A DNA stretch of 64,000 nucleotides from Octopus vulgaris (Eukaryota): positions 129,890,001 to 129,954,000 of the forward strand of contig OX597817.1 in the NCBI GenBank assembly GCA_951406725.2. Reading direction: 5' to 3'. A model generated the notes under the pieces. The model was not told the DNA's origin. It worked only from the letters and a program-made list of their open reading frames with translations, and made no database searches. How positions within the stretch are numbered: position 1 is the stretch's first letter; each line of letters opens with the position of its first letter. Positions 5,731-52,890 of this stretch are shown piece after piece. Position numbers and translations under genes: made by a program.

Positions 5731-5768
5731 CAGTACCGGTTTCGGTCATTTTGAGACCTTTTCAACTG
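5731..5768 (-). ncRNA. Minimal type-I hammerhead motif, family 2 (U3-A8 core), in a PLE-like terminal remnant ~5680-5845
   Basis: Minus strand: CAG-TTGAAAA-GGTC-TCAAAAT-GACC-GAAA-CCGG-TA-CTG; abuts (TA)n. Confidence 0.75.
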
Positions 5769-7119
5769 TAACGATTAAATAATTAAATTTAGAAAAATTA
5801 GAAGAAAAGTTTTTTTAAAAGAATATTTCTATAGTAGTGTTCAGATTTAAGTGGCATTCTGCCTTTCTCTGACTCCCTTGTTTGCACATGTATATATATA
5901 TATATATATATATATATATATATATATATATATATATATATAGAGAGAGAGAAAGAGACAGAGAGAGAGAGAGGGGGGGATAGATAGATAGATAGATAGA
6001 TAGATAGATAGATAGATAGATAGATAGCCAGACAGACAGAAAGACACCTAGCTAGATAGATAGATAGATATATAGACAGATAGATAGATAGATAGATAGA
6101 TAGATAGATAGATAGATAGATAGATAGATAGATAAATAGATAAATAGCTAGATATGCGTGAGTGTGAGAGTGTTATGAATATACATATAGTTTCCTGGGA
6201 GTTTGGTTCGAGAACTTTTGGGGATTTCTGCCTTTGGAGCATTAGAGATAACGATTATAGCAAATAGATAAATAGCATAAAGTAAAATAAAATATATATA
6301 TATAATTATAAAATAAAACTATAAATACAAATCTTTCAAAATGCCTTTCTTTTCTCTTTCTTCCAATAGCTCGTTTTCTCTTTCTAAGCACGCAAGAAAC
6401 TGTAACTATTTCATTTTTTACTTTACACCGAAATATTACTTCGAAAAACGTCTTCAACCTATTATATTCCGTATGTACAAAAGATTCGTAAAATCAATTT
6501 TCCTTTCACATGGGTGGGGATTATGTAGAAATAAAGTGCGATGGAAGTTAGAAGCGGAGAATGCACCAATAAAAACTAATAACAGTAAAAACTGCAATAA
6601 ATTTTGATGCGCCTTTCCATTTGCTGCAAATGGAAATACGGATTCAAATTTAAAGAGCCGAAGATGTTCTTTACACTATAGTAAAGATATCGTTTTGGTA
6701 TCATCATGGTATTTTGTTTATGTTGTGTATTTAGTGGAAGGGATTTATGAACGTTGTGAAGACTATATGTTCATTTTGTTGATTTGTAAGCTAGTAGTTC
6801 TCTAGTGAGGCAGGCCTGCAGAAGATGCCTGATTTTACTTCCAAGTTGTATCAAGCCACTTTCCGTAAACCTACGCAACTACCAATACATACATACATAC
6901 ATACATACATACATACATACATACATACATACATACATACATACATACATACATACATACATAATTTTGGATAGAGAAGAGAAATTGTGTACAGTTGTGG
7001 AAATCAGCTGCCCAGCGGTTGTTAACATAATGCTAAAAGATCAGCGAAAAAGAAAATACATATGCTGAATTATGGAGGAATCTACAGCTATTCTATCCAG
7101 GTTACAAGTTCAGATTTAT

Positions 7120-7350
7120 ATTTCGAACTCGATTCCTGGAGGCGTGAAGTTGTGTCCTTGAGCAAGACACTTTATATCACTTTTCTCCAGTCCACTCAGC
7201 TGGCAAAATGAGTAGTACCTGTATTTCGAAAGGCCAACCTTGTCACATTCTGTGTCACGCTGAATCTGCCTGAGAACTACATTAAAGGTACGCGTGTCAG
7301 TGGAGTGCTCAGCCACTTGCGCGTTACTTTCACGATCGGGCTGTTGCATT
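7120..7350 (+). mobile_element. SINE family C fragment
   Basis: tcgattcctgga...gtgtccttgagcaagacacttt...ccagtccactcagctggcaaaatgag; similar to 37370-37690. Confidence 0.7.
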
Positions 7351-7805
7351 GATTAAACAGTGCCCCAACATACCAGCACAGCGTACTGGTGATAGGTAGC
7401 GTTGTATATAGATAACTTTGATCCTAAGTTTAATAACAACCACATCACATCCCAACAGCTAGTCATCGATTTACTAGTATGGTAATTACATTTCACGATT
7501 TATCGCAAATTGGGGACACACAGACACAGATACACACGCAAACACATACCCATACACACATACAAACATACATACGTATATATGTGTGTTGTATGTATTA
7601 ATATACACTTAACTGTGTTTGCATTTCTACACTGATCTTACTCGTCTGTTCATTATTTCCCACCTCTTTAGCATCAAATCATGAAGATAAATAAACGAAT
7701 TTGTATGAGTGTATGTATTTATGTATCAATATATGTGCATGCATAAATACATACATGCATACATACACACATACACACACACACACATACATATACCTAT
7801 ATATA

Positions 7806-48583: not shown

Positions 48584-51011
48584 CATGCTTGTGAGTGAGA
48601 AAGTTTACGTTGATGCCTTTGTCATCTCTTTGATCACACACACACACACACACACACACACACACACACACGCCCGCGCACGCACACACCTACTCGCATA
48701 ATAACGTAAACTCAAACAAGTGATATGACTGACGTGAAAGGCATATCATAATACGTTCACAATTTGAATATAACTGGGCAGAGTAATGGTTGGAGGATTC
48801 TGCATCTTCTATGAAAAAAGACACAAGCCTGTTAGATTATTTGTGCACTTCTTAGAATATTATCGCTAATTGGAAGAATTGGGGGGGAAAAACCATAGGG
48901 AATTGGTAAATAGGATATAATGTCGCACGGATTAAAGGAGATGCGTACACACAATCTCAGATATACTGTCATCCCAGATGCACATACGAAGGCGTGCGCT
49001 AAAACACACTCACATACACACGCGCAGACACGCACATATACATGTTTGTATGTATATATACATGGTATTATTGGGAATGAGTTCTTAAGAAGAGAAGGAG
49101 AGTGCTACTTAAAGGGAGAGAAACGCTTCCAGATTTACTTTTCATATGAGGAGGAATCATTATCAAAGGGCGAAGAGCATACATGTATTTCCATATGATT
49201 CTTTTAATTTATTTTCTCATTTCCACGGAATAAGGTCCTCAAAGTCATTCAACACACACACACAGACACACAAACACACACGCACACACACACACATACA
49301 CACACACATACATAGATACATATATATGCATACATATATATTTTATATTATATATGTGTGTATGTGTATGTGTGTGTGCATGTGTATATATGTGTATATG
49401 TGTGTACGTGTGTGAGTATACGTGCGAGCATTTATATTTATAGACACACGCACACACACACACATATGTGTGTGTATGTGTGTGTGCGTGTGTGCATGTA
49501 TGTATATAATATACTATATGCATGTATATCCGCAGAACATAGATTGGTATGGCTTAGCACATACACATATATACAAATATATTGGGCGTCAGTTATATTC
49601 GAAGCTGATCGATCAAGTATTTCTCCATTGTAGGAGAGGCTAATTGGCTGAATATTCGCTAATACCTGCGTCATTGACATAATCTTCTCTTTGAATCGAC
49701 ACGTCAAAATTTGTGAACAATTTCACTCTTTGAAATACAGGAACAATGTATGTATGTATGTATGTATGTATGTATGTATGTATGTATGTATGTATGTATG
49801 TATGTATGTATGTATGTATGCATGCATGCATGCATGTATGTATGTATGTATGTATGTATCTATGTATGTATCTATGTATGTATTTATGTATATCTATATA
49901 TCTATTTATCTCTCTCTATATAGATACATATATATGTGCATATATATATATGTATCTATATATATATATATATATATATATATATATATTTATACATACA
50001 TACACATACACACATCCATTTTAATATGTACACATACGTATCTAATACGTATGAGAAGGTAGGAATAGAGAATGTACAAGAGAAGACATGACATGTAATG
50101 ATAACGAAATTTGAGTATCTAAGATGGCGAGAGGACGGGAGAGACAGAAAGAGAGAGATGAAATTCTGTTAGAGCATGTATCTGCGCATATATAGATAAC
50201 GTGCTCACACACACACATAAATATAAATTCACCAATACACACACACACACATATATATATACACATGCAAGCATGTGTAAGAAAATTTTGGCATATATGC
50301 ACATACGCACATGCGAAGATCAATAGATTTTTCTATGTCTATTCCAGATATTTTTCCTATCATCTCAGAATTATTTACACCTGTTCACAATCATATAAAT
50401 ATATATATATGTGTGTGTGTGTGTGTGTGTGTGTGTGTGTGTGTGTGTGTGTGTGTGTGTGTGTGTGTGTGTCCGTGTATGTATGTGCGTGTATGTATAT
50501 GTTATGTATGTATGTATGTATGTATGATCGTATTTGTGTGTTCCCGTGGATTTGTAATTTCTCTGAGTGTGCATGTGCGTCTACATATTCGTATACGTGC
50601 GCGCGTGTCGTTTGCCCGTAAGTAGGTTACAATCAGCAGATGCCTGTTTAATGATGCAGGTGCTTATGGAAGCCTCGCATCAATTTTACATAACATGATG
50701 TAGAAACGTTATGTATTGGCATGCTTACGTATATCTGTATTCACTGTAATACATGAACTGCTTTCTGGTGATTGCTATTCTTATTTTATTTTTGTATCGT
50801 TCTGGTAATTATCTGCATCCATATATCTATCGATGCATGATTCACAATTCGCCTTGGTTTCTAGGGTGATCTCAGTTTGCCTGGAAAATATCAAAATAAA
50901 AACTTTACATAATGTACTACGTTGGGTGTAAGTCTATCATTCCGTATGTATATATATGTGCGTGTGTGTGTGTGTGTGTATGCACACATATATACATGTG
51001 TGTACGTATAT

Positions 51012-51526
51012 ACTCTTTTACTCTTTTACTTGTTTCAGTCAAGTGATTGTGGCCATGCTGAAGCACCGCCTTTTAGTCGAGCAAATCGACCCCTCGACTT
51101 TTTCTTTGTAAGCCTAGTACTTATTCTATCGGTCTCCCCGTCGTACCCCTAAGTTACGGGGACGTAAACACACCAGCATCGGTTGTCAAGCGATGTTGGG
51201 GGGACAAACACAGACACACAAACATACACACACACACATACACATATATATATATATATATATATATATATATATATATATATATATATATGTACATATA
51301 TACCACGAGCTTCTTTCAGTTTCCGTCTACCAAATCCACTCACAAGGCTTTGGTCGGCCCGAGGCTATAGTAGAAGACACTTGCCCAAGGGGCCACGCAG
51401 TGTGACTGAACCCAGAATCATGTGGTTGTTAAGCAAGCTACTTACCACACAGCCACTCCTACGACTATACTTATCACACAGCCACTCCTACGCCTATACT
51501 TACCACACGGCCACTCTTACGCCTAT
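51012..51526 (-). mobile_element. SINE family A with triplicated 5' head
   Basis: Reverse complement of 2294-2700; 29-bp unit x3 at 51440-51526. Confidence 0.88.
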
Positions 51527-52857
51527 ATTTATATATATTTATACACAAACACACACATACACAAGCGCATAAGGAAGCAGTTAACAGGGACTTTGAAGTT
51601 TCGACTTCCTCGCCATTATCAGCCACTCTGATGAAGGCAAGCAGAAATGTTAATAAATATGTACTCCACAAAAAGTATTGAGCAATCTTACAATTTCATG
51701 TTAAAAGGTTTTTATATATAACTTGACATAAAACCTGCCATTAATATACACTTGCATATAACTGTAAAGTAGACAAACTACAGCTTTTGAAAACTTTCAC
51801 TAAGAAGATTTCAACAGATGTGAATACATTCTTTTTTCTTCTACGCAAGTAGTTATCGTCTGGTTATGGCGAAAAACATAGGCGATCGTCCGGACATGAT
51901 TCACTGTTCGTTAAATACTAATCAGCAGACAAAAGCAATTATTCTACTAGTGAAAAAGATATATTGCAAATATCTATTTTAATTAAATGCATACTAGAAC
52001 TTAACAGCAATGGCTAGACTAATTTGCATAATGAGCTTTTAACGGCAGCTTGATTAATTATTAAATATTTATGTGCAACACAGCGTATATAAAATTTAAA
52101 TATATTTAGAGTAACTAGACTCTGTGGAACTACAAATACACACACACACACACACACACACACACACACATACAAGACATTTATGTATGTGCGTTTGTGT
52201 GTAAGTATACACACACACACTTCAATGTATTCACTCGCTTACGAACACGCACCCAAATATATAACTGCGTGTGTATGTATACACACATTCACTCATTCAC
52301 CCACTCACTCACACACATGTATACATGCTTAATTAGATACATACACACACCTGTGTATCTGTGTGTTATTAGAATATCTATTATACTGCCTGACATATAA
52401 CAGAAGTTTTCGAACTTCATATGTTTCATTAGACTTCAAAAGGAACGCCTGAGAAGAAGATTCATGCTAGGACTATTTTTCCTTTATTTGTCTAATAACA
52501 CTCACTCGCTCAGTAAATAAATTTACGACATAACTACAGAAGTTTGACTCATCTTCGATTTTGTTTCTTCATAACTTTATGGAAAAAATGCAGATTTTTA
52601 AAAATGAAATAATGGTATTAAAGTAGTCGTTATGATCAATCTTCCAAATAGCTGCGGTATATTCTGCATAAGCGTTAAAGAATAAATAGATTAAAATCAC
52701 GTAAATAAAACAAGTAAGATTATATGATAAGAAGGAGACAAAGAAAATACATGAAATTAGACAAGCGAAACATGTAACTGAATGGGTAGAAACATAAAGC
52801 GTAAAAATAGTGTACAGTAAAAGCAAATACGGTTTAGGAGAAAAAAATTGAATAGAA

Positions 52858-52890
52858 TCTAACGTTTCGGTTGATACACTTTATCAAAGA
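52858..52890 (-). ncRNA. Hammerhead-like motif, family 4 (U3-A8 core)
   Basis: Minus strand: TCT-TTGATAA-AGT-GTATCA-ACC-GAAA-CG-TT-AGA; one stem II mismatch. Confidence 0.45.

Follow-up and report, generated by a model that had tools for sequence, protein, structure and literature searches.

Hammerhead motifs of Penelope-like elements in an octopus genome pair core positions 3 and 8 as C-G, U-A, A-U or G-C

The DNA examined is a stretch of 64,000 nucleotides of Octopus vulgaris (contig OX597817.1, G000:C4:129890001-129954000; hereafter the window), from an animal genome of 2.8 Gb in 227 contigs that is rich in microsatellites, and its subject is a set of small type-I hammerhead ribozyme motifs, several of them carried by Penelope-like elements (PLEs). 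In the active hammerhead, core positions 3 and 8 form a Watson-Crick pair. A sequence-only reading of the window had listed ten such motifs in four families, here F1 to F4; the name F5 is used for a family with a G3-C8 pair that was found outside the window. All ten motifs were present with the cores described, and the C3-G8 pair was found as claimed in four of the five F1 copies, the exception being the C3/A8 copy at 57885. Each motif exists where it had been placed, although the coordinates given were the low ends of the motifs and position 3 lies elsewhere; the list also overlooked a canonical CUGACGA hammerhead at 32946 (+) and a decayed F4 copy at 53057 (+). The family patterns keep the type-I three-way junction (U4 G5, A9, G12 A13 A14, A15.1-U16.1 and H17), a palindromic stem III is present in all families, and the hammerheads inside the window are arranged as solo copies or inverted pairs. 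Four of the ten copies (3571, 13479, 58142 and 5765) and the canonical motif at 32946 passed a strict descriptor, which demands a palindromic stem III and at least 3 bp in each of stems I and II. Among the copies that failed, stem III is broken in three (57885, 63065, 26357), GAUA replaces GAAA in 9277, stem II is broken in 52887, and 25675 has the 2-bp stem II common to its whole family. In an Rfam scan of the window, the best 150 of 473 matches were mostly microsatellite or miRNA noise and included no hammerhead, and the output of a generic repeat finder was likewise dominated by microsatellites.

The F1 motif at 3567..3602 (+; position 3 at 3571) has C3-G8, U6, an extra base at 9/10.1, a 4-bp stem II and a palindromic ACGU stem III, with the predicted cut after 3598. 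A second copy (13475..13510, +; position 3 at 13479; C3-G8, C6) lies about 600 nt 3' of a broken fragment of the F1 PLE with reverse transcriptase (RT)-thumb and GIY-YIG regions (11885..12865, +); this fragment has 78% DNA identity to locus L259, which itself has an F1 motif, and its two raw open reading frames (ORFs) gave no Pfam match. The copy at 58138..58173 (+; position 3 at 58142; C3-G8, U6) is the third to pass the strict descriptor; that at 57881..57916 (+; position 3 at 57885) is decayed, with the C3/A8 mismatch and a non-palindromic stem III, and at 63061..63096 (+; position 3 at 63065) both stem III and the cleavage triplet have decayed. In every F1 window copy position 6 is U or C, and a single extra base precedes stem II. 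Genome-wide family counts are pattern matches, each set against a reversed-pattern control, and all are lower limits bound to the pattern; for each family the 3:8 pairing was tallied by eye from the first matches listed, with the core positions left free. F1 gave 19,503 matches against 0 for its control, with C3-G8 in 96 of the first 100 listed and a mismatch in the other 4; position 7 is the sole free core position, and all four letters occur there. Because it has U6 instead of the conserved A6, which F2 to F5 keep, F1 is classed by the A6 criterion as a variant and not as a member of the canonical hammerheads. The U6 change is odder than the 3:8 swap and had been underplayed in the sequence-only account of this family. 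F1 relatives with A6 exist, and a canonical sister of F1 has a 3:8 mismatch in 4/13, often at CpG. The F1 motif follows a PLE frame in 3 of 30 loci and at the window copy; no PLE frame was found between several F1 motif pairs 3-4 kb apart.

F2 has the core UUGAAAA and the pair U3-A8. Its best window copy (5729..5770, -; position 3 at 5765) has a 4-bp stem II, a GUA site and a palindromic ACCGGU stem III, and is a solo piece of the pseudo-long terminal repeat (pLTR) of a young PLE. The copy at 9272..9311 (+; position 3 at 9277) has GAUA in place of GAAA and a stem II closed by A-U; the copy at 26323..26362 (-; position 3 at 26357) has a broken stem III palindrome and a tail ending in (TA)n, and it adjoins an F3 element at the (TA)n end of its tail. 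Across the family stem II is stable and of the type usually closed by G10.1-C11.1, with an A-U subfamily; F1 and F5 have such a stem II as well. There were 3,156 F2 matches against 0 for the reversed control; the first pattern had a fixed core, which made its 36/36 pairing circular, and when the count was redone with the core free, U3-A8 was present in 100 of the first 100 matches listed. The motif flanks a 784-aa RT and GIY-YIG frame, for which 75 of 75 scored matches (thus at least 75 copies) were 98-100% identical and most frames were open, and the element is arranged head to tail in arrays that repeat about every 4.43 kb; therefore the U3-A8 lineage has transposed recently. Contigs from four datasets, guessed to be RNA but maybe DNA, span the F2 element and run unbroken through its ORF junction; they carry no information on RNA ends, strand or level. 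A non-LTR retrozyme, made of short non-coding tandem units, was rejected as an identity for these motifs: the F2 tandem units are about 4.4 kb long and coding, and the window copies are solo or in inverted pairs.

The F2 PLE has two frames, seen on the minus strand of locus L264 (4004-5341 and 1713-4064) and likewise in L032 and L034. Counted from its first ATG, which lies about 155 nt 3' of the start of the hammerhead core, the upstream ORF is about 410 aa long; it shares about 60 nt with the RT-endonuclease frame, in the -1 frame, and a slippery-type heptamer, U UUU UUA, lies inside the overlap. No strong hairpin was found downstream of the heptamer. Endonuclease-bearing PLEs are usually described as having a single ORF, and a programmed frameshift in this one is possible on the arrangement of its frames. 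A literature search on frameshifting in endonuclease-bearing PLEs found no paper; in the available part of Craig et al. 2021, the legend to Fig. 1 gives a frameshifted ORF1 for some PLE type.

F3 is represented by one window copy (25640..25682, -; position 3 at 25675) with the core AUGAAUA, the pair A3-U8, a GUU site, a 7-bp stem I and a palindromic ACCAUGGU stem III, and it lies 147 nt past the stop of a 5'-truncated PLE GIY-YIG endonuclease fragment (25822..26295, -; 76% to locus L260). Pfam scored this fragment as GIY-YIG with E=6.6e-4 and 20.4 bits, under the cut-off of 22.6. F3 had 38 genome-wide matches against 0 for the reversed control, 34 of which had A3-U8 and 4 of which were mismatched; a GIY-YIG endonuclease lay 157-217 nt upstream of the motif in 12 of 30 loci, and stem I was a perfect 7 bp in 25 of 30. 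The F3 and F2 proteins are 55% identical, yet positions 3 and 8 both differ between the two families; on this identity, U-A and A-U appear to be states of sister PLE lineages. Two further features were seen here: a short repeated segment internal to the F3 endonuclease fragment, and the stacking of the F2 tail, the (TA)n tract and the truncated F3 element in one orientation (25822-26362, -).

The fourth pair, G3-C8, was found outside the window, where F5 came to light because of G-C matches in a random 1-Mb scan. F5 has 5,296 matches and is carried by another young PLE; among the first 100 matches listed, 93 had G3-C8 and 7 were mismatched. Of 30 endonuclease loci, 27 carry the motif about 1 kb downstream of the GIY-YIG frame, and one copy has an open frame of 1,025 aa. 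As a separate observation, many short F5 insertions (loci L233-L252) start not at the cut site but at a similar point, 15-20 nt upstream of stem I, and often bear a short inverted copy. In locus L247 an intronless frame (1592-2138; G000:C1 at about 6.253 Mb) stands head-to-head with the 5' end of a G3-C8 element; we take it to resemble dCMP deaminase, and it is possibly a host mRNA copied by the PLE machinery.

For F1, F2, F3 and F5 the hammerhead sits in the pLTR of an element with RT and GIY-YIG domains, downstream of the GIY-YIG frame and on the same strand, so that the proposal that these motifs are PLE hammerheads is borne out for F1 to F3 by their GIY-YIG frames, and four different 3:8 pairs occur in four PLE lineages. 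Protein comparison of the four consisted of pairwise identities, by which the F1 PLE is a third, distant lineage (27% identity). Their translations share a CX2-5CxxC linker before the C-terminal GIY-YIG domain; in the available text of Craig et al. 2021 this linker is given for Neptune and Nematis and not for Penelope or Poseidon, and by this linker the elements resemble Neptune/Nematis endonuclease-bearing PLEs.

Covariation of positions 3 and 8 was assessed both among individual motifs and among families. Across the window and a further 400 kb, all 16 strict motifs had positions 3 and 8 paired, and shuffled sequences gave 1.0 motif each. In the random 1 Mb, composed of 100 evenly spaced 10-kb stretches and scanned with positions 3, 6, 7 and 8 free, 22 of 24 strict motifs paired (13 C-G, 6 U-A and 3 G-C), compared with 2.7 motifs in the shuffles, 0.8 of them paired; other pairs of core positions were complementary in just 2-8 of the 24, and without the stem I filter 24 of 28 motifs paired, against 1.4 in shuffles. 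Beyond F1 to F5 there were two multi-copy U3-A8 families, one single U3-A8 match and one C3-G8 family (loci L122 and L162; L169 and L231; L190; and L112, L160 and L165). All nine multi-copy families pair 3:8 (three C-G, four U-A, one A-U and one G-C); they require at least three double substitutions away from C-G, and none is fixed for a mismatch. Permutation gave p=4e-4 for the nine families and p=0.033 for the five whose discovery did not depend on 3:8, single-copy matches being excluded and shared ancestry ignored. The covariation proposed by the sequence-only reading is therefore upheld in 9/9 families and 22/24 random motifs. The compensatory swaps suggest selection for catalysis, as that reading had held; since genomic copies decay into 3:8 mismatches, we infer that such selection acts only on the founding or source lineages.

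That a CUGANGA search would miss many of these motifs also proved correct: about 28,000 matches belong to F1, F2 and F5, families in which the usual core differs from CUGANGA. When only the scaffold and A6 were required, there were 10,184 matches against 780 for the controls, and 20 of 30 loci were canonical. A CUGANGA search thus misses a large share, probably most, of the hammerheads, at a rate lower than the roughly 90% suggested by the filtered 1-Mb sample; the 2/24 canonical motifs in that sample understate the canonical class because the filters drop a large CUGACGA family, and the figure was not taken as a genome-wide fraction.

Statements on published work refer to the available parts of each source. 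U3-A8 was described for PLE hammerheads of Schistosoma by Cervera and De la Pena 2014 (PMC4209133), who give the cores UUGAAAAA and UUGAUAAA (their Fig. S3) and whose descriptor for U3-A8 had about 1,300 hits. The motifs here have in common with those metazoan PLE hammerheads, including Cercyon of Schistosoma mansoni, the type-I order, the short palindromic stem III, the extra base at 9/10.1, the pLTR location, many solo or inverted copies, and U3-A8 cores; unlike them, F2 and F3 have no extra base and F3 has a stem II of 2 bp. A3-U8, G3-C8 and U6 are present in 0 of the 56 representatives of that study, whose descriptors were not built to find them. Natural U3-A8 and A6C hammerheads were described by Perreault 2011 (PMC3088659), and the A6C hammerhead of phage Bcep176 (PMC7151607) has low activity in Mg2+ and prefers Mn2+; natural U3-A8, a change at position 6 and 2-bp stems II are shared with the motifs here, but those variants are rare, unlike the U6 family with its more than 19,000 matches. 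For the PLE hammerhead of the Anolis Poseidon element PAc (Frangieh et al. 2024, PMC11167929), cleavage depends on the 3:8 pair, with rescue by an engineered G3-C8 pair; its natural core is C3-G8, and the elements here carry the CX2-5CxxC linker. In the literature covered, including a search on cephalopod hammerheads, there was no report of natural A3-U8, G3-C8 or A6U PLE families, most subscription papers and figures being outside that coverage; the largest survey of PLE variants, from 2017, may cover them. That survey, by Lunse, Weinberg and Breaker, reportedly describes small PLE-linked hammerheads with a reduced stem III and dimeric cleavage, in very many sequences.

The U3-A8 case, the covariation principle and the architecture of PLE hammerheads are already published, and because the principle and the U3-A8 case are, the present findings extend rather than overturn that work. 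Possibly new is the occurrence of all four pairs on PLE lineages that are recently active or traceable, together with the very abundant U6 family. A further reading is that the PLEs of one genome have sampled every 3:8 Watson-Crick pair, with A3-U8 and G3-C8 as the first natural PLE families of their kind, and that the family with most copies cuts although its position 6, supposedly fixed, is U; taken as a whole, we hold this to be rather less likely than not. If true, it would amount to a mutational scan made by nature, from which selection for catalysis in PLEs would be evident, and the hammerheads counted in invertebrate genomes would be several-fold too few. Published work leaves it doubtful whether PLE hammerheads matter to the element, given their poor cleavage, the fact that insertion in vitro can do without them, and the suggestion that they are passengers. 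Changes of both partners that keep the active-state pair argue for selection on the catalytic fold; two of the families are young with intact frames and are direct test material, and ribozyme surveys should free positions 3, 6 and 8.

We think it probable that these minimal hammerheads cut PLE RNA slowly, as dimers or with the assistance of protein, which would explain why the 3:8 pair is kept. A tandem PLE transcript would bring two motifs together, the palindromic stem III would pair between them, the 3:8 pair would form the active core, and the RNA would be cut after GUH; selection would have worked on the few source elements that transpose, the dispersed copies being decaying by-products, and the cut RNA would apparently not be the usual template for insertion. 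Cofolding of dimers through stem III was seen for F2 and F3; one PLE hammerhead carrying the C3G/G8C rescue showed activity when protein was present (PMC11167929). Several results weigh against slow cutting under selection. Dimer cofolding into a hammerhead was not seen for F1 or F5. F1 has U6 in place of A6 in 96 of the first 100 matches listed, and changes at position 6 reduce hammerhead activity in the available reports; in F3 a variable unpaired base comes after a stem II that is 2 bp family-wide. Of 100 F5 copies examined, no more than 3 start at the predicted cut, in agreement with uncut RNA as the template. In published work PLE hammerheads were poor cutters in vitro and insertion in vitro did not need them; Naiad PLEs do well with no canonical hammerhead (Craig et al. 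2021). No parent PLE was found for F4 (0/7 loci) or for a sixth family, F6 (0/2 loci). The permutation tests of 3:8 pairing ignore shared ancestry.

The same results could mean that the fold is selected as a structure, for example as a signal for protein binding or RNA dimerisation, and that F1 with U6 and F3 with its weak stem II no longer cut usefully. We regard this as unlikely, although it accommodates the prevalence of U6 in F1, the short stem II of F3 and the lack of a pile-up of G3-C8 copies at the cut site; in addition, uncut RNA was the main template in vitro and RNA-seq of the Anolis element showed no ends at the cut (PMC11167929, available part), and Cervera and De la Pena allow for roles besides cleavage (PMC4209133). 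What speaks for cleavage instead is that the 3:8 pair forms only in the active conformation, and that the catalytic elements GAAA, A15.1-U16.1 and H17 are kept in the family patterns. A second alternative is that the motifs cut and ride on PLEs as passengers, in which case the element would gain nothing and the pair would persist because it serves the motif itself or through founder effects among few lineages. The idea that hammerheads "simply parasitize PLEs" is raised by Craig et al. 2021, and our comparison is of nine families only, which are related; against this, there are the three or more double substitutions away from C-G and the absence of a fixed mismatch from all nine families, no route for independent spread was seen, and the four traced families all ride on PLE frames, and we hold it to be quite improbable. 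That the motifs are chance hits of a loose pattern in repetitive, AT-rich DNA is suggested by several unrelated low-complexity matches in a relaxed scan of the window and by six imperfect copies among the ten; this is so improbable as to be negligible, being refuted for F1 to F3 by thousands of copies, zero reversed controls, a fixed position in PLEs and a roughly nine-fold or greater excess over shuffles, with F4 resting on fewer and older copies.

The remaining window motifs belong to F4 or to the canonical type. The F4 copy at 52858..52890 (-; position 3 at 52887) has the core UUGAUAA and U3-A8 with a decayed stem II, and a second, inverted and more decayed copy lies at 53054..53086 (+; position 3 region at 53057). 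F4 is an old family whose relatives, found by DNA search, are 66-93% identical and indicate a 4-bp stem II with an extra A, lost from the window copy and intact across the relatives only; the six matches of an F4 pattern search were all unrelated and were rejected, the true family having come from the DNA search. The canonical CUGACGA hammerhead (32939..32989, +; 32946) has a 7-bp stem I and a long palindromic stem III, and its family has 19 matches, 18 of them with C3-G8. Hammerhead-like fragments with positions 3 and 8 unpaired, one with a long palindromic stem III, were seen at 54913-54960 (+) and near 51600-51660, and may be decayed members of other families. The window also holds, at 22456-23389 (-), a fragment of an element of the long interspersed nuclear element type with a zf-RVT domain (Pfam E=1.7e-8), and near-identical sequence recurs in loci L244/L254.

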